A stretch of 64,000 bases of DNA, taken from positions 1 to 64,000 of the forward strand of contig NJBI01000004.1 of the NCBI GenBank assembly GCA_005222975.1, given 5' to 3'. The stretch comes from Promethearchaeota archaeon Loki_b31. GTDB lineage: Archaea; Asgardarchaeota; Lokiarchaeia; Sigyniarchaeales; SOKP01. The translations under genes were made by a program, and so were the position numbers. The notes below the pieces were generated by a model, which made no database searches, was not told where the DNA came from, and worked only from the letters and a program-made list of their open reading frames with translations. This document shows, in pieces, positions 1-34,941 of this stretch (position 1 is the stretch's first letter; each line of letters starts with the position of its first letter).

Positions 1-1757
1 ATTATTATTCGGATATCCCCGGAGTATTTTTGACCTATAACAAGACAATCAGCGATCTCAGGTAATTGTTCTACAACATTATAGATTTCTGCAGTACCAA
101 TTCGTACTCCAGAAGGTTTTAAAACTGCGTCCGATCGACCCCAGAAGGTAATACCACCTGTATCGCTATGAATGACTATATAATCGCCATGTCTCCAAAT
201 CATTTTTCCTACGTCTTTATAGTAGTCAAAATAGGCAGCTTTATATTTTGTCATGTTATCGTCATCGCCCCAAAAATAGATTGGCATCGAAGGTACGGGA
301 GCTTCACACACAAGTTCGGCCTGTAAATCTTCAACAGGTTCAGCTTTTTCAGAATACGATTCTACTTTCATTGCTAAAGCACGCCCTTGCAATTCTCCAG
401 AATATACCGGTAAAATAGGTATCGCTCCAGCAAAACAACCGTTAATATCTGTTCCGCCACTGATTGAATTGAAAAAGAGATCTTTTTTAATCTCTCGATA
501 GACATATTCAAAACCTTCAGGAGATAATGTAGATGCAGTTTGCGAGATCTCTCTTAATGCACTTAGGTCATATTTCTCAGCAGGTTTTACCCCAAGTCCC
601 ATTAGGTAATGAATATACGCAGCACTAGTACCAAATATAGTTACCTTATGTTTTTCAATTAATTCAAAAAACCTTAATGGTTCTGGATATAGCGGATTAC
701 CATCATATAAGAATATTGTTGCGCCCGTGGCTAAGGCACTGATAAGCCAGTTCCACATTTTGGCTGGTATAAAGATACCTTATACCATCATCCATGAGGG
801 CGCAGTAATATAATTAATGACATCGCTTCTTTTTACATCAGTAGATAAGATTAATTCTTTTAAATGATTGATCAATACGCCACCAGCGCCTTGAACCATA
901 CACTTTGGTTTCCCCGTTGTTCCTGATGAAAACATCACGTATAAAGGATGATCAAAAGGTAATTGTTCAAATTCAAGACCAGGATCTTCCTCTTTTGAAA
1001 TAAAATCATCCCAATGTACTGCATTTGGGATGTGGCTTATCTCAGGTTTTCCATCAGTGATGTAAGTCGCCACTACTACTTTTTCTATCGAAGGAATAGC
1101 TTCAACCACAGTTTTAGCATTCTCGGTGATATTAAATTCTTTGTCCCTATAGAAATATCCATCAACAGTAAAGAGAACTTTTGGCTCAATTTGTCCAAAA
1201 CGATCGATGACTGCGTTCGGTTGTAATTCTGCGCCACACGATGCCCAAGTTGCGCCAATGGTAGTAGCAGCTAACATTGCAATAGGGGTTTCAATCAAAT
1301 TTGGAATATATGAAACAACTCGATCCCCTACTTTGACACCCATTTCCTTGAGAGATTTTGCTAAGCGTGCAACTACTTTATTTAGTTCGGCATAAGTAAT
1401 TTGCTTCGAAACCTTGGTTTCTCCTTGAAAAACAAAAGCTAATTGGTCATCTTTATACTTCAATAAGTTTTCCGCAAAATTCAATTTTGCTCCGGGAAAC
1501 CATTTAGTTCCTGGGAAAATGTTTAGATCCTCAACCACTCTATCATATATCTTGGAAGCTACAATACCTCCAAAGGCCCACATAGCCGCCCAGAAATCCT
1601 CAATCTTTTCTACAGACCATCTATATAGATCTTTACCTCCCTTAATTTCTTGACCATATTTTTTATTTACATATTCGATAAACTTGGTTATCTCAGCATT
1701 TTTAATCCATTCAGCGGAGGGTTCCCATAATTTTTTTTTATTTGAAATGATTAGCAC
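1..1757 (-). CDS. Acetoacetyl-CoA synthetase (acetoacetate-CoA ligase), interrupted by a 30-nt putative BHB intron at 759-788; 3' end runs off the window
   Basis: N-half has WFPGAKLNFAENLL and the adenylation motif MFSSGTTGKPKC. After the insert the same frame continues without stops to position 1 (MWNWLISALATG...SISGGTDINGCF...WRHGDY...GRSDAVLKPSGVRIGTAEIY). Confidence 0.93.
759..788 (-). other. Putative BHB-type mRNA intron (30 nt) in acetoacetyl-CoA synthetase
   Basis: mRNA CA-UGGA-UG|A-UGGUAUAAGG(UAU)CUUUAUACCA-GCCA-AA|A-UG: 10-bp inner stem, two 3-nt bulges, central helix with one A.G mismatch. Removal gives ...W-M-M-W-N-W. Confidence 0.8.
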
Positions 1758-28940: not shown

Positions 28941-29516
28941 CTAGTGAAGTAATTTTTGTTTTCTTAGTTTTAACAAATCTTCTTTTAGGAGCGAATACAC
29001 ATAATTATCCAAATATTCTCCGTTAACATACATATCTTTCTTAAATGTAGCTACGCGAGTAAAACCGTTTTTCTCTGCGCAACGCCACGACCCTTTATTA
29101 ACAACAAGTATAGAGGCTTTAAGTTTAAAAATGTTTAGTTCGTTAAATGCATATTCAACTAATAATCTTGTAGCTTCTTCTCCAATTTTTTGCCCCCAAT
29201 AATCGGGCTCTCCAATAAGCAACCCTAAATATGCTTGTTGGTTGTACCAGTTGATATCTGACACTTCTCCATAGCCAATTATCTTTTTATCTTTTTTATG
29301 CCAAATTTCGAAACTTACCTCATTTTTAAGTCTTTTATCCGAAGGCTCTAGGTATTTCTTCATTTCTTCTACAGTACGAGGTAAAATGTTCCGAGAGTAT
29401 ATTCGCACTTTTGGGTTATTTTCCCATTTTGCATACAATTTAATATTTTCAATATTTAATGGGACGAAATCTATAGTTTCTCCTTCGATAAAGGTAAAAA
29501 TATCTTGATTCTTCAT
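28941..29516 (-). CDS. GNAT N-acetyltransferase (RimJ/RimL-like)
   Basis: IGEPDYWGQKIG, NKGSWRCAEKNGF. Confidence 0.9.
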   Translation of the reverse strand: MKNQDIFTFIEGETIDFVPLNIENIKLYAKWENNPKVRIYSRNILPRTVEEMKKYLEPSDKRLKNEVSFEIWHKKDKKIIGYGEVSDINWYNQQAYLGLLIGEPDYWGQKIGEEATRLLVEYAFNELNIFKLKASILVVNKGSWRCAEKNGFTRVATFKKDMYVNGEYLDNYVYSLLKEDLLKLRKQKLLH

Positions 29517-29548
29517 AATTCTTAATGATATAAATGGTAAATATTATT

Positions 29549-30106
29549 TTATTCCTTTGATTTGAGCCAATCTTCTTTTAAATATCTATACATCCTCGCA
29601 TCGACATATTCTCCATCGATATATATCATCTTCTTCTCAGCGCCTTCTAACACAAAACCATCTTTTTCAGCCACACTCCACGAACCTATATTAGGTTCAA
29701 ATATTCCCGCGTAAATCTTATGAAAATTGAGCTCTCCAAATCCATAATCGATTAAAAGTTTCGATGCTTCGGTTCCTAAGTTTTTATTCCAATATTTAGG
29801 CTCGCCTATTGACATAAATGTATTGGCGTGTCTATTTATCCAATCAATATGTCCATATCCACAAGTTCCAATTGGCACTTTATCCTTTTTATGATAAATT
29901 TCAAAAGTTACAAATTCTTTTATCCCTTCCCTTGGTTCAAACCATTTTTTTGATTCTTCAACGGTAATTGGTATTGTATTACGAGCATATCTTCTTACGC
30001 GAGGGTCGTTTATCCATTTCGCATAAAGATTAACATGTTCTAAATTAATAGCAACCAAGTCAATATTTTCTCCTAAAATAAAGGGAAAAACTTCTGGTTT
30101 TTCCAT
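29549..30106 (-). CDS. GNAT N-acetyltransferase (RimJ/RimL-like)
   Basis: IGEPKYWNKNLG, NIGSWSVAEKDGF. Confidence 0.9.
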   Translation of the reverse strand: MEKPEVFPFILGENIDLVAINLEHVNLYAKWINDPRVRRYARNTIPITVEESKKWFEPREGIKEFVTFEIYHKKDKVPIGTCGYGHIDWINRHANTFMSIGEPKYWNKNLGTEASKLLIDYGFGELNFHKIYAGIFEPNIGSWSVAEKDGFVLEGAEKKMIYIDGEYVDARMYRYLKEDWLKSKE

Positions 30107-30165
30107 CTTCTATAACCTCATAAGTTTTCAGTTTAAATTATTCATTTGATTTTTTATAATATTAA

Positions 30166-30726
30166 TTATTTATTCGTTTGTTCCCATTCTTCTCTAAATA
30201 TACAAAATTTCAATTCGTCGACATACTCTCCGTCGAAATATGTTTGATTTTTCAATGCTAATTCGAGTTTCATTCCAGTTTTCTCAAGCATACGACAAGC
30301 TCCCTTATTTGGCCTTAAAGCTGAAGCTGTAATTTTAACTAAGTTTAATTCTTCAAATCCGTATTTGATCATTAGTTTTGCTGCTTCTGTACCCAAATTG
30401 TTTCCCCATAATTCTTTTTCTCCTATTAAGAAGCCTAAATCTGCTGCGTGATTTATATAATTAATATGATGGAACTCTACAAAACCAACAATTTTATCAA
30501 GTTCTTTATGATAAATTTCAAAAAAAATATCTCTCATTGGTCGCTCTTGTTTTTGCTCTAAACGCTTCTTTAGATCTTCAGGAGATACGGGAAAAACATT
30601 TCGGGCGTATAATCTCGTTTTAGGGTCGTTCGCCCATCTAGCGTGGATTCTTGCGTTTTCGGGATTAAATGGGAGAAGTTCTATGCGTTCCCCCTCAATA
30701 AATGTTAATCGCGTATTTTTTTCCAT
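30166..30726 (-). CDS. GNAT N-acetyltransferase (RimJ/RimL-like)
   Basis: IGEKELWGNNLG, NKGACRMLEKTG. Confidence 0.9.
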   Translation of the reverse strand: MEKNTRLTFIEGERIELLPFNPENARIHARWANDPKTRLYARNVFPVSPEDLKKRLEQKQERPMRDIFFEIYHKELDKIVGFVEFHHINYINHAADLGFLIGEKELWGNNLGTEAAKLMIKYGFEELNLVKITASALRPNKGACRMLEKTGMKLELALKNQTYFDGEYVDELKFCIFREEWEQTNK

Positions 30727-30755
30727 AATTTACCCGCCAATCCTTCACTTAATAA

Positions 30756-31352
30756 TTAATTTTCATCTTTCATTTTCCAATCTCTTTTAAACAATGCGAA
30801 TTTGTGGATATCGTGATATTGCCCGTCAACATACATTTCTTCTTTTAAAACGCCTTCTTTTTTAAATCCTAATTTTTCAGCTGCACGAAGAGACCTTTTA
30901 TTTGGTGTAAAAACTCCAGCAAAAATTTTATGAAAATTCAATTCAGTAAAACCATAATTGATCATTAAATTAGAAGCTTCACCAGCTATACCCTTCCCCC
31001 AATATTCAGGTTCTCCTATTGTTAAAAATATATTAGCATTTCTACTGACCCAATTAATGTGATTAAATCCTATACTACCGATTGGCCGTTTTGCGTGCTT
31101 ATGATAAACTGTAAAGACAATGAATTCCCTCATTTGTCTGTCTGGTGGGGGTTCGAACCATTTTTTTACTTCTTCGAGAGTTTTTGGCCACATATTTCGA
31201 GAATAATGACGGACTTTTGGGTCATTCATCCATTTACAAACTAAATTAGCCCATTTAGAATTTCCAGCAACTAAATCGATGGTCTCTCCATTTATAAAAG
31301 GAAATACATCTTCTTCTTCCTTATCTTCTTTATCTTTTTTTTCTTCTGTCAT
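30756..31352 (-). CDS. GNAT N-acetyltransferase (RimJ/RimL-like)
   Basis: IGEPEYWGKGIA, NKRSLRAAEKLGF. Confidence 0.9.
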   Translation of the reverse strand: MTEEKKDKEDKEEEDVFPFINGETIDLVAGNSKWANLVCKWMNDPKVRHYSRNMWPKTLEEVKKWFEPPPDRQMREFIVFTVYHKHAKRPIGSIGFNHINWVSRNANIFLTIGEPEYWGKGIAGEASNLMINYGFTELNFHKIFAGVFTPNKRSLRAAEKLGFKKEGVLKEEMYVDGQYHDIHKFALFKRDWKMKDEN

Positions 31353-31487
31353 GTTTTAGCCTCAAATAAAATTCATATTTCATTGAATTTGATTAAGAAA
31401 TATGAATGAGAGTAAAAATTAATATTTTTACATTTAAAATAAAAAAAAAATAGAAAATTAAATAATTTTTTACAGTAAAATTGAAAT

Positions 31488-31541
31488 CTACAATAATTTC
31501 ATTGCCAGAGTCATGTCGTTAACAGTTAATTTCTTTCTGCC
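31488..31541 (-). repeat. Intron-less duplicate of the histone gene 3' end (att-like direct repeat)
   Basis: GGC AGA AAG AAA TTA ACT GTT AAC GAC ATG ACT CTG GCA ATG AAA TTA TTG TAG = GRKKLTVNDMTLAMKLL*, the same peptide as spliced 34258-34341 with only synonymous differences. Confidence 0.92.
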
Positions 31542-32323
31542 AATTCCTTTAAATTTATGAAATTAAAATAAAAAATTCTTTCTCCCGTTAATTTAGAATA
31601 GAAGTAAGTTAAGCTAATCTTAAGAAAATAGAGTTTGTGCCTGCTCTAAAGCAAATCTTTTCCAGTTTATTTATTAAAATTACAAAAAAATTGAGTCGCC
31701 TTTCCTATTGAATAAAAATTTATAATAAACGGTTGGATACTAAATTTTATGGATTAGGATGTGAAACCCTTAGTTCCGATTGTTAAGGTTTGATCGGGTT
31801 GATCTAAAAGTTGTTCTTGTTTGAAAAATCGTTTCGTATTCGATTGAGAAAAGTTTTTTGTCCTGAACTAACGCGATTAAATTCTACTAAATACACCTTA
31901 ACTAACTCCTTATATAATGTTTTACCGAACTTGGTTTCTATGAGTTTTATTTTCATCACCTTAAATTCTTCTGTTGGCTAATATTTGCGATCCCTTTCGC
32001 AATATACTCTAAGAATTGATATATATTCCCGTTTCGAGAATCGAGCATGAGCAATTGGCACTTTGCTTTTTGCTGGATTTCTTCGGAACAAAAAGACAGA
32101 AAATCGGCAATGTCTTCTACGTGAAAATAATTCCTGCCCTTTTCGTCCTCAAATTAGATGTTATATCCCTTATCTAAGGCGAGCGTTGACAAAAACTAAA
32201 ATAGAAGCCCTTTTTGATTTTAGTTTGGACTAATCTGAGCCCTATTTTATTACTAAATTCGGAATTTACGATTTTAATTGCAATCTAATTTTTAGAAACG
32301 AAAATCTTTTTATTCCGATGAAT

Positions 32324-32641
32324 TCAATCAACGATTTTATAAAATACATCTCTTACTGACGCAATCAAAATACATTCTGAGCCCCCGCCGTCAATCCTCA
32401 AATTACTAATTACGTAAGGTCTATTTGAAGTGCCTTGCCCGACACATCTCCCCGAATTTATTAAGTCGATCCAATCGTTATCGTCGTCAATTAGGATGGG
32501 TGCTGATGGAACCGCGTTTGAAGTTTCTGCCTCCATTTCGCTGGATTTATAGGCACCTGTAGTACTCACAATTGATAACAAGGGTATACACGCTATTATA
32601 AATATAACGCTAACCAAGAAAAAAATCTTAAAAGTTTTCAT
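32324..32641 (-). pseudogene. Truncated secreted protein (N-terminus of a NosD/beta-helix-type surface protein)
   Basis: Signal peptide plus PILIDDDNDW...GQGTSNRPYVISNLRIDGGG, then a premature TGA and further stops. Confidence 0.6.
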
Positions 32642-33045
32642 AAAAATATAAGTCAGGCTATCGTACTTAAAGAAAAACTCGACTTGTTTCTACTCGAAAA
32701 GGATGAGTTTTTCTTTTTGATCGATTAATTAAATTAACTATTGATAAACGAGCTAAATCCTATAAATTTGAATCCAAAATTAAAAAAAAATAAAAGTTCA
32801 AGAGGGGTTGATATAAAAAGGAAAAATCCCGGCGATACATTAAACCGGCTAAGTGAAAAGATTTAAATACTGCGAAATAATTTCTATTCATAGAAAGATA
32901 AAATTCGAACAAAACGATTCTTTTGGATTTTAATCTATCACTAAGTTAGCTAGATCTGAAGTTTAAAATAAGCGTAAAAAAATAAAGATTAAGATAAGGA
33001 TAAAATAAAAAACGAAATTGAAATGAGATAGGGAAAAAATAACCG

Positions 33046-33157
33046 TGACTCCTGCGCCACCCTGGATTTTTGTCTTTTGGTAGTGCGTAAAGCACTCATC
33101 TAATACTCCCCCTATTTTGTTTCTGACCTTCTTATTAGGTCGAGGCAGCAGGAGTCG
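33046..33157. other. GC-rich structured element (candidate ncRNA or cis-element)
   Basis: Closing stem GACTCCTGC-GCC / GGC-A-GCAGGAGTC; internal hairpins AGTGC-GTAAA-GCACT and GACCT-TCTTATT-AGGTC. Confidence 0.5.
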
Positions 33158-33249
33158 TCTTTTTCTTTCATTTTCTTTTCGTTGCTTAATAGGAAAAATA
33201 AAAACTATAAAACTTTTTCTTTAAATAACCTCTTTCGTAACATATTAAC

Positions 33250-33828
33250 ATGAAAGAAGATACAGCAGTCGTGAAGATTAAGTTTTACGACCACGGGCTC
33301 GGAAGAGAGCAAGTTATTTACGGAGAGGTAAAAGCGAGCAAGATAGATCGGTTCGAAACCAACGAAGATTCTTGGATTACATTGACCGACTCTAATAGAT
33401 CGCTTATCGTACCTAAGATAGATGTCGCGTGCATAAGCGAGTTCAAAGAACTCGGTGAGCTAGACGGTCATGAGAAAGAGTTAAATATTGCTTTTGAGTT
33501 TAACGGACCCCAACACTATAAATTGAGCCATTGGATGGAGGTATACGGATTAAGCGAAAGCGTTGCGAGAAAAAGGTTTTATATTCAAATTATTAACGAT
33601 CTTAACAAACTAAGGGAATGTCAAAAGAAAGATACGGTATTAATCGTTCTATCCTCTTTGGATAATCCTAGTGACTGGCAAGACATCATAGTTCATCAAT
33701 ACGAACTTTGGACGGGTAAAAAAGCTCCAGTAAAACACCCATTAGATTACGAAAGTGTCCTTAAATTGATATCAGAAGAAGATATTGGAACCTTGAAGAT
33801 TAAATTTTTAAAAAATTTCTCCGGTTAA
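33250..33828 (+). CDS. Hypothetical protein (island)
   Basis: 192-aa ORF, no recognised motif. Confidence 0.65.
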   Translation: MKEDTAVVKIKFYDHGLGREQVIYGEVKASKIDRFETNEDSWITLTDSNRSLIVPKIDVACISEFKELGELDGHEKELNIAFEFNGPQHYKLSHWMEVYGLSESVARKRFYIQIINDLNKLRECQKKDTVLIVLSSLDNPSDWQDIIVHQYELWTGKKAPVKHPLDYESVLKLISEEDIGTLKIKFLKNFSG

Positions 33829-33908
33829 TTTTAAATTAAGTTAGTCTTATATTTATATGAGAATACTTAATAACATATTAAACAGAACTTAAGCGAGCGC
33901 ATATTACT

Positions 33909-34193
33909 ATGGATGAAATTAAAAGGATCAAAAATATTAATATAGATGAAATCAAACGGATGGCTAAGTTTGTTAATGATAATTACCTGACGGACTGCAT
34001 TGGTAATAAGGAGAATTGTTTTTGCAAAGTTTTCTACGACAACAGAATTTTATTCTGCGAATTTCCTGCTTATTGTGCTCGTTTATTAATTAATAAGGAA
34101 AATGGATTGCTCAACGAACTGGTTGATGAAATATGCGAAGAGAGAAGGGAAGAAGCGATATATTGGAATTTTGTTAAGAGAGATCAGGAATAA
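33909..34193 (+). CDS. Small Cys-containing hypothetical protein (island)
   Basis: 94-aa ORF with several Cys. Confidence 0.55.
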   Translation: MDEIKRIKNINIDEIKRMAKFVNDNYLTDCIGNKENCFCKVFYDNRILFCEFPAYCARLLINKENGLLNELVDEICEERREEAIYWNFVKRDQE

Positions 34194-34257
34194 ACAGAAT
34201 AAAAAAAAAAATTAAATATTTTTTAACTCATTGTCGTACAATCATTCGACTTTAATT

Positions 34258-34500
34258 CTACAATAATTTCATTGCCAAAGTCATGTCGTTGACGGTAAGT
34301 ATAAAGATTTAAAGTTAAATACTAAAAATTTTCTTTCTGCCGGCATGTCGAGTCATTTCTAATGCTTTATTTGTTACTCCTCTAGCAGCTTTCTCTAAAT
34401 AATCAATAAGAGCGTCTACTGCTTCACGAGCAACCATTTCAGCGCCGTTATCTTTCATTAACTTTCGAACTGGTGACCAGGCAAATACTTTTTTAGCCAT
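34258..34500 (-). CDS. Archaeal histone (HMf-like, 70 aa after splicing), join(34500..34331,34300..34258)
   Basis: Spliced product MAKKVFAWSPVRKLMKDNGAEMVAREAVDALIDYLEKAARGVTNKALEMTRHAGRKKLTVNDMTLAMKLL; GGAGG SD upstream; T-rich tract downstream. Confidence 0.93.
34301..34330 (-). other. Putative BHB-type mRNA intron (30 nt) in the histone gene
   Basis: mRNA AG-AAAG-AA|A-AUUU...AAAU-CUUU-AU|A-CU: 4-bp helix AAAG/CUUU flanked by 3-nt bulges AAA and AUA; contains two in-frame UAA. Confidence 0.88.
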
Positions 34501-34941
34501 TTTTTTCATTCCTCCACTTTTAACTTTTTAATATTTTTTTCTAAAGTTCACATTTTTCAATTTGAACCTTATTATATTATATATTTTCTTTTAAATATTT
34601 AAAACTTGCGTAATATTTTTGATAGGGTATGTTTCGGTTAATAATTTCTTCCGATCGACAAAATTACGATGTTAGAGAAGAAAAGCGGGAGATACACTTC
34701 TGAGCCGTTAGATCAGAGATCTTTTTTTATTTTTGAAAATATAGACGAGGCAGAATTAAGTATAGAGGAAATGAGCTAGCTTTGGTGAGAATGCTATTAT
34801 TTGATATATTTTCTGGATAAAAGTTAATAATTTAAAAGACTTTGTTACCTTCTTAATTTTGATTACATAACACTTAATTGATTTAAAATTTTAAATATTA
34901 GATTCTCGAAAGTTATAACAAAAAAGTATTTATTTAAAAAA

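Follow-up and report, generated by a model that had tools for sequence, protein, structure and literature searches.

In the Asgard archaeon Promethearchaeota archaeon Loki_b31, the coding region of a histone gene is very likely interrupted by a bulge-helix-bulge (BHB) intron, i.e., an archaeal intron of the tRNA type, of only 30 bases. The gene, here called histone A, lies on the minus strand of a stretch of 64,000 nucleotides (positions 1 to 64,000 of contig NJBI01000004.1 in assembly GCA_005222975.1; hereafter the window), and the 30 bases occupy positions 34330-34301. All window coordinates given below are positions in this stretch. The genome under study, designated G000, is an assembly of 3.5 Mb in 99 contigs (92% complete, ~6% contamination); G-numbers denote genomes of the genus, and L-numbers denote the loci compared.

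The split histone gene and its predicted splicing

When the minus strand was read in the frame of histone A from 34509, it gave MKKMAKKVFAWSPVRKLMKDNGAEMVAREAVDALIDYLEKAARGVTNKALEMTRHAGRKKIFSI*, then L*IFI, and then LTVNDMTLAMKLL*, ending at 34258. The N-terminus reads M(KKM)AKKVFAWSP, and the first segment stops at RHAGRKKIFSI*; the gap between RKK and LTVNDMTLAMKLL* is exactly 30 nt, leaves the frame unchanged and contains two in-frame stop codons. This minus-strand reading bears out the initial annotation of the DNA, which had described a histone open reading frame (ORF) that stops early and resumes 30 nt later in the same frame. Translation probably starts at the second ATG, 34500, since it lies 11 nt past a GGAGG sequence (34515-34511) to which the ATG at 34509 is too near; only the ATG equivalent to 34500 is present in the histone A genes of relatives. 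With this start, the spliced product has 70 amino acids. The parts of the gene and of the predicted motif are as follows.

34331..34500, minus strand: histone A exon 1, MAKKVFAWSP...RHAGRK plus AA (first two bases of the next Lys codon)
34301..34330, minus strand: predicted BHB intron, 30 nt, AAUUUUUAGUAUUUAACUUUAAAUCUUUAU, from the third base of bulge 1 through the second base of bulge 2
34258..34300, minus strand: histone A exon 2, A closing the Lys codon, then CTT ACC ... TTG TAG (LTVNDMTLAMKLL*)
34298..34338, minus strand: BHB motif, from a scan pinned to the required exon junction and from covariation
34338-34337 with 34299-34298, minus strand: outer helix of the BHB, AG/CU
34336-34333 with 34306-34303, minus strand: central 4-bp helix, AAAG/CUUU
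34332-34330, minus strand: bulge 1, AAA
34302-34300, minus strand: bulge 2, AUA
34329-34326 with 34310-34307, minus strand: inner helix, AUUU/AAAU
34323-34321 with 34315-34313, minus strand: distal hairpin of the same motif
34201..34211, minus strand: run of 11 T, ~50 nt past the exon 2 stop

Exon 2 encodes the L2 loop and helix alpha-3, and thereby supplies in frame the missing part of the histone fold (alpha1-L1-alpha2-L2-alpha3). The 65-position profile PF00808 matched exon 1 alone at positions 6-56 with 33.5 bits, and the intact 70-aa orthologue L072 at positions 6-65 with 43.3 bits; exon 1 is 88-98% identical to its orthologues. The run of 11 T is, judged from its sequence only, likely to be an archaeal terminator, and exon 2 would therefore lie inside the histone A transcript.

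The pinned scan recovered exactly the fold that had been claimed initially, i.e., outer pairs AG/CU, central helix AAAG/CUUU, bulges AAA and AUA, and inner helix AUUU/AAAU. Two 3-nt bulges lie on opposite strands with a 4-bp helix between them, and the flanking helices, an outer one of 2 bp and an inner one of 4 bp plus a distal hairpin with compensatory changes, give the motif the strict hBHBh' form. The exon junction predicted by the scan, AGAAAGAA|ACTTACC, equals the sequence of the intact orthologues, in agreement with the earlier proposal that the cut would yield RKKLT and a complete histone of 70 aa; the spliced junction predicted for histone A RNA is GGCAGAAAGAAACTTACCGTC. The motif by itself is weak evidence, because loose BHB-like motifs are frequent in the AT-rich G000 (~10 per 330 nt at 31.5% GC), and rarity of the motif alone is no argument in such a genome. 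The pinned register was passed by 0.18% of random genomic 30-mers and by 0.86% of insert shuffles, and no Rfam family was found at E ≤ 0.1 within the window at 29-37 kb.

G000 encodes two EndA paralogues (C13 and C79) that are 33% identical, each with PF01974 and PF02778, the catalytic His context being found in one paralogue and absent from the other; RtcB (PF01139) is encoded on C84. Asgard archaea are reported to possess a broad-specificity (alpha-beta)2 EndA with an L1 loop, which accepts relaxed motifs (PMC5829648), and the EndA pair of G000 fits this type. Aragorn recognized only 14 tRNA genes in the 3.5 Mb of G000, six of them with introns, suggesting that most tRNA genes of this genome are probably too interrupted for recognition. 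This count is in line with the reported interruption of most Asgard tRNA genes (PMC11291895; bioRxiv 10.64898/2026.10.13.758758).

In the mechanism that we propose, the pre-mRNA would fold by pairing of AAAG at the end of exon 1 with CUUU at the 3' end of the intron, so that a 3-nt bulge remains on each strand, between an exon-exon helix on one side and the intron hairpin on the other. The (alpha-beta)2 EndA would cut past the second base of each bulge, and ligation by RtcB would give AGA AAG AA|A CUU ACC (RKKLT) and a histone of 70 aa that includes helix alpha-3; the 30-nt intron would probably be freed as a circle. From mRNA that stays unspliced, a product of only 65 aa would result (61 residues of the histone, then IFSI), without L2 and alpha-3. 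We infer that histone A RNA is actually cleaved and ligated, and that expression of histone A would depend on splicing.

Comparative evidence and alternative explanations

The real support for the predicted intron is comparative. Histone A was read at 30 loci from 36 searched genomes of the genus; it is uninterrupted at 27 of them, with the reading ...RHAGRKKLT..DM.LAMKL[LM]*, and the 30-nt insert is present in G000, G015 and G002. A further 160 loci came from scans of genome and metagenome contigs; seven full intron alleles and a truncated one (L194) were among them, and the rest were intact. In total, 10 full alleles and the truncated L194, from independent assemblies, carry the 30-nt insert at the same site.

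An ungapped alignment of the 10 full intron-bearing alleles was tested against 500 shuffles and against controls in which the partners were slid. The central helix was paired in 10/10 alleles, both bulges were always 3 nt, and 92.9% of all alignment cells were paired. Two-sided changes were found at four pairs (18:51, AU/GU/GC; 25:47, AU/UA; 33:39, UA/CG; and 30:42). None of the 500 shuffles equalled the observed pairing, and the slid controls fell to 28-67% paired. The alignment of orthologous loci suggested in the initial annotation thus revealed both presence and absence of the intron and covariation of its helices.

The codon at the cut site provides a further comparison. Exon 1 ends in AA in all 10 alleles, the first base of the intron is A in six and T in four, and exon 2 opens with A in nine and with G in one; a cut after the second bulge base therefore yields AAA or AAG (Lys) in 10/10 alleles. 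The straight-through, unspliced reading gives Asn in 4/10 alleles, and Lys is found here in every intact orthologue. All 10 intron alleles have an open exon 2 that ends in the same stop codon, with a ratio of nonsynonymous to synonymous differences (pN/pS) of 0.30. In intronless alleles we also sought AGAAAGAAA-CTT-AC, which might have been a footprint of loss mediated by spliced cDNA or of contigs derived from transcripts; the sequence is not diagnostic, because it is common among ordinary intronless alleles.

G000 has four histone genes, of which those on C17 and C74 are uninterrupted. Both histone A and a second gene, histone B, are interrupted, and therefore two of the four histone genes are affected. 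In most of the 42 genus genomes searched, histone B reads MAKKKHSFAWSPIRRLMKQQ...HANRKKITKNDLLLSIKYK*; in G000 it is on the minus strand of contig C25 and contains two BHB-type inserts.

C25 1816-1844 (L004 1661-1689), minus strand: 29-nt frame-shifting insert of histone B, after codon 6, following CATAG
C25 1631-1660 (L004 1476-1505), minus strand: 30-nt insert of histone B, in the homologous RK|K codon

The 30-nt insert of histone B is unrelated in sequence to the histone A intron and GC-richer, and its motif has outer pairs AAUC/GAUU, a central helix GAAA/UUUC and bulges AAU and AUA, with the predicted junction NRKKIT. In G004, the 3' insert of histone B is 34 nt long and frame-shifting, with the central helix GUAA/UUAU, the intron partner having changed along with the exon, where CGA is replaced synonymously by CGU. 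The 29-nt insert is common to six species; pairing in its proposed BHB reaches 93%, and three pairs of the inner helix are compensatory. In these six alleles, the sequence downstream of the frame shift has a pN/pS of about 0-0.07 at a pS of up to 0.55, which is incompatible with a dead gene. Each of the two histone introns of G000 (A and B) is single-copy in the genome, with up to 6 mismatches allowed, which speaks against the idea that the inserts are a repeat or a miniature inverted-repeat transposable element.

Several observations weigh against the assignment of a BHB intron. The outer helix in histone A has only 2 bp (AG/CU), followed by an internal loop and 3-5 more pairs. The fold was not more stable than shuffles (minimum free energy -5.4 kcal/mol, z = 0.18), a z-score that is uninformative for an AU-rich BHB. 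The counts of covarying pairs exceed the number of independent events, because the alleles are related and were partly spread horizontally. The intron also contains a run of five T (34324-34328, minus strand; AUUUUUAG), which is a possible weak archaeal terminator; oligo-T tracts are able to terminate archaeal transcription, and some transcripts may therefore stop within the intron. Finally, the 30-nt 3' insert at RKK in histone B of G024 (L058) shows no canonical BHB at the cuts required by the frame, and folds as a nearly continuous hairpin. In G024, the G of the Lys codon AAG lies in exon 1, whereas it belongs to exon 2 in G000 and G004, and the intron may have shifted by one or two bases.

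The G024 insert speaks for a removal from RNA by enzymes other than EndA and RtcB, i.e., by another nuclease-ligase pair or a factor encoded by the element itself, as does a nuclease-like protein encoded by the cargo that accompanies the intron in G000 (see below). We consider this explanation very unlikely, since the geometry in 10 + 6 + 2 alleles is that of an exact EndA substrate with cuts past the second bulge base, 7/10 full intron alleles are without the cargo genes, and EndA and RtcB are both present in G000. It is also highly unlikely that histone A is a pseudogene or a deliberately truncated histone, in which an insertion scar would end the protein at IFSI*, exon 2 would be an undecayed relic, and other histones would serve instead. 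The two uninterrupted histone genes (C17 and C74) and the arrival of the G000 insert in a probably recent 2.8-kb insertion would suit such a gene. However, the 10 alleles, whose introns differ at up to 13/30 positions, all keep exon 2 open with the same stop and with the pN/pS of 0.30 given above, the helices are preserved by compensatory changes, the frame-shifted histone B of six species keeps a pN/pS of about 0-0.07, and only the BHB cut rule restores the split Lys codon.

Programmed translational bypass, by which the ribosome would skip the insert as in phage T4 gene 60, seems extremely improbable. Superficially, the insert shares with the gene 60 gap a length of a few tens of bases, a stop codon and a hairpin, but its take-off and landing codons do not match (AAA or AAU at take-off, and AUA or a similar codon ahead of CUU), and bypass leaves unexplained the conserved helix of 4 bp that separates the two 3-nt bulges, the Lys codon put together from AA and A/G, and the 29-nt and 34-nt frame-shifting inserts of histone B. 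That the 30 bases are an artefact of assembly or binning and absent from the DNA of the organism is a negligible prospect even for a metagenome-assembled genome of 99 contigs with ~6% contamination, since same-site inserts occur in at least 10 other independent assemblies from different projects and their variant sequences retain the same structure.

Taken together, the recurrence of the insert, the compensatory changes, the restoration of Lys in 10/10 alleles, the intact exon 2 and the presence of genes for EndA and RtcB support the interpretation of the initial annotation that the insert is a BHB intron, as which it behaves in every comparative test run.

The 2.8-kb insertion and probable mobility of the intron

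In the five closest relatives (L006, L007, L009, L011 and L014), which are intronless and 87-94% identical, the histone gene runs straight into the sequence that starts at G000 31541. G000 contains at this point a segment of 2788 nt, which comprises, in gene orientation, the intron, exon 2 (CTTACC...TAG), a 94-aa ORF, a 192-aa ORF and ~1.7 kb without clear genes, with a right end that reads ...AAAGGAATT. The segment is bounded by a 12-nt direct repeat, GGCAGAAAGAAA, at 34341-34330 and 31541-31530, and the second copy of the exon sequence, at 31541-31488, consists of GGCAGAAAGAAA followed by TTAACTGTTAACGACATGACTCTGGCAATGAAATTATTGTAG. The features of this region are as follows.

31542..34329, minus strand: 2788-nt segment, absent from the five closest relatives, where collinearity breaks
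31488..31529, minus strand: displaced native exon 2, TTAACTGTTAAC...TTGTAG (TTAACTG...TAG), with the native flank next, collinear with the intronless relatives
31542..31586, minus strand: degenerate second exon-1 end, GGGAGAAAGAAT, read by eye, plus 33 nt of intron-like AT-rich sequence, inside the right end of the segment
33250..33828, plus strand: cargo gene p192 (192 aa), convergent with histone A
33909..34193, plus strand: cargo gene p94 (94 aa), no family match

The sequence at 31488-31541 had initially been described as an intron-less duplicate that independently confirmed the expected exon sequence. It does confirm the expected junction, but it is not an independent copy: since the native exon 2 and the native flank follow the 2788-nt insertion, this sequence is the displaced original 3' end of the gene. 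The degenerate exon-1 end, GGGAGAAAGAAT, is identical to the junction of G002. In comparison with the closest intronless allele, L153, G000 shows four differences in 209 nt, all of them in the last 15 nt of exon 1, and the end of exon 1 looks like a conversion tract. The intron evidently entered G000 within the 2.8-kb segment, together with a replacement exon 2 and a gene for a probable Vsr-like nuclease.

Residues 68-156 of p192, with the motif ELDGHE...IAFEFNGPQHY, form a probable Vsr / EDxHD-like PD-(D/E)XK nuclease domain. In the predicted structure, the mean predicted local distance difference test score was 58, and about 77 in the core. With VIA-align, the core matched best Vsr (1cw0; Z 6.8, rmsd 2.4, 84 aligned), the homing endonuclease I-Bth0305I (3r3p; Z 5.8) and the DUF559-like 3hrl (Z 4.9), all three with modest scores that fall short of the trust level of the program. 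Searches of p192 and p94 against Pfam and PHROGs gave nothing meaningful, and a Foldseek search of p192 against the PDB gave nothing at E ≤ 0.001.

Within the genus, p192 was found only in G000, G032 (as a fragment) and G011 (35% identity). Both cargo genes follow the intron-bearing histone A in the metagenome contigs L174 and L187, and a homologue of p94 with 32% identity is next to histone B of G032. The cargo genes are absent beside 7/10 full intron-bearing alleles (present in G000, L174 and L187), which ruled out p192 as a general companion of the intron. In G015, G002, L129 and L166, the flanks are collinear with those of the intronless relatives on both sides; the other three alleles are less well resolved.

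A 94-aa ORF elsewhere in G000 (C65 35798-36082; L071 1501-1785) matches p192 over its N-terminal 78 residues with 80% identity and shares with it ~470 nt of upstream sequence; p192 therefore looks like a fusion of a small gene with a Vsr-like nuclease domain. A p192-like gene with 39% identity lies just downstream of an intronless histone A (L123 2726-3076), and in G032 (L069/L059) a p192-like fragment (62% over 42 aa) and a p94-like ORF lie downstream of the intron-bearing histone B. There are thus hints of a recurrent link between the p192 nuclease family and histone genes.

To trace the distribution of the intron, a tree was built for 155 loci from the upstream region and exon 1, with 11 intron-bearing rows. 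These rows require 11 state changes, at least nine of which are forced by well-supported branches, and every one of the rows has an intronless allele as its sister. Among introns of the G000 type (type I), 0-2 of the 30 positions vary between hosts that have an exon-1 pS of 0.45-0.55. Such near-identical introns in diverged hosts are best explained by recent horizontal spread, the alternative being extreme constraint on all 30 intron positions. As compared with the nearest intronless alleles, differences are found mainly in a few exon bases of the outer helix (AGA + CTT ACC versus CGA + TTA ACT). These data indicate that the intron is probably mobile at the DNA level and has probably entered histone A repeatedly in different species. 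Candidates for the way in which it would move are nuclease-assisted homing, plain homologous recombination and reverse splicing.

A broader hypothesis, to which we give somewhat less than even credence, is that BHB mini-introns of ~30 nt are a mobile population that horizontally invades protein-coding genes of Asgard archaea, in some cases as cassettes with a replacement exon and a Vsr-like homing nuclease. Under this hypothesis, mini-introns could invade coding genes because the broad-specificity tRNA-splicing enzymes of the host remove them from mRNA. It is conceivable, with the same reserve, that the intron interrupts the target site of the Vsr-like homing nuclease.

Some neighboring features were also observed. 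At 29000-31400 (minus strand), the window contains three to four tandem paralogous acetyltransferase-like ORFs of 186-198 aa (e.g., 30166-30726 and 30756-31352), which appear as the repeats D1-D3; this array is the native neighborhood downstream of the histone gene in relatives. On C25 (L004 976-1344), a 368-nt segment with a 103-aa ORF lies ~100 nt downstream of histone B and has no counterpart in G017 and G009, the closest relatives. At 759-788 (minus strand) of the window, a stop-containing hairpin insert of 30 nt, GGTATAAGGTATCTTTATACC..., splits SWMM|MWNW in an acetoacetate-CoA ligase-like gene.

Implications and comparison with known systems

If histone A RNA is spliced as predicted, mRNAs, those of chromatin proteins among them, would be routine substrates of the Asgard tRNA-splicing machinery, and the gain, loss and sliding of introns would become open to study in a prokaryote. 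Gene callers would systematically truncate or split such genes, as in this genome for 2/4 histone genes. Helix alpha-3 forms part of the contact between histone dimers; since retention of the intron removes alpha-3, splicing could in principle gate histone function, although this is speculation. Introns that are nearly identical in diverged hosts, together with the cassette in the window, offer a concrete and testable route by which introns may enter genes. Should the broader hypothesis of a mobile population hold, the closest prokaryotic relatives of eukaryotes would harbor mobile introns that are independent of the spliceosome, gain and lose positions in genes, and have reached even histone genes.

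In a full-text literature search, no BHB introns were reported in Asgard mRNAs or in any histone gene. The papers searched describe BHB introns of mRNA only for cbf5 and for a 5' untranslated region (UTR) in Haloferax, and within coding sequence only for cbf5. The initial annotation had named cbf5 as the known case and was aware of none in a histone gene.

The BHB intron of cbf5 pre-mRNA is found in Crenarchaeota (Aeropyrum, Sulfolobus and Desulfurococcales; Watanabe 2002; Yokobori 2009, PMC2738675), where it lies within the coding sequence, its splicing was demonstrated experimentally, and one ancient gain with at least two losses was inferred (PMC2738675). The histone intron resembles it as a short BHB intron in coding sequence, predicted here to be removed by the tRNA-splicing endonuclease and a ligase, with a lineage-specific presence and absence and a gene that is miscalled by annotation pipelines. 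In contrast to cbf5, the host is an Asgard archaeon (Promethearchaeota) and the gene encodes a histone, introns occupy at least three sites in two paralogous genes of 70 aa each, they are scattered among very close relatives with near-identical sequences, which points to horizontal spread, and the intron travels with a nuclease-like gene in three loci. Splicing was shown by experiment for cbf5; for the histone intron it is a prediction.

In Haloferax volcanii, the HVO_1309 mRNA has a BHB intron in its 5' UTR, as shown by CRISPRi knock-down and in vitro cleavage (PMC7714728). The likeness to histone A lies in an mRNA as the substrate, in our case predicted, of the archaeal splicing endonuclease; unlike the histone intron, that of HVO_1309 is in an untranslated leader and interrupts no reading frame. 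The non-canonical tRNA introns known from Asgard archaea and Thermoproteales (PMC11291895; bioRxiv 10.64898/2026.10.13.758758; PMC5829648) share with the histone intron the same motif, presumably the same enzymes, and the same lineages, in which introns interrupt most tRNA genes and were gained repeatedly. Unlike these, the histone intron has an mRNA host, and its cut sites must therefore preserve the reading frame.

In collaborative homing of the phage T4 type, a free-standing homing endonuclease is encoded beside an intron that interrupts its target site. The histone loci resemble this arrangement in that a nuclease-like gene lies outside the intron and adjoins the intron-bearing gene (G000, L174 and L187), and in that flanking exon bases are co-converted and the intronless target is replaced. 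They differ in that the intron is a 30-nt BHB intron spliced by proteins and not a group I ribozyme, the nuclease is a prediction, and 7/10 full intron-bearing alleles are without the nuclease-like gene. In eukaryotes, the HAC1/XBP1 mRNAs are cut by Ire1 and joined by tRNA ligase or RtcB under regulation by stress. As in HAC1/XBP1, a short mRNA intron would be cut by a protein endonuclease in paired stem-loops and the exons joined by a tRNA ligase in histone A; however, the endonuclease would be of the EndA/TSEN type instead of Ire1, and regulation by stress belongs to HAC1/XBP1.

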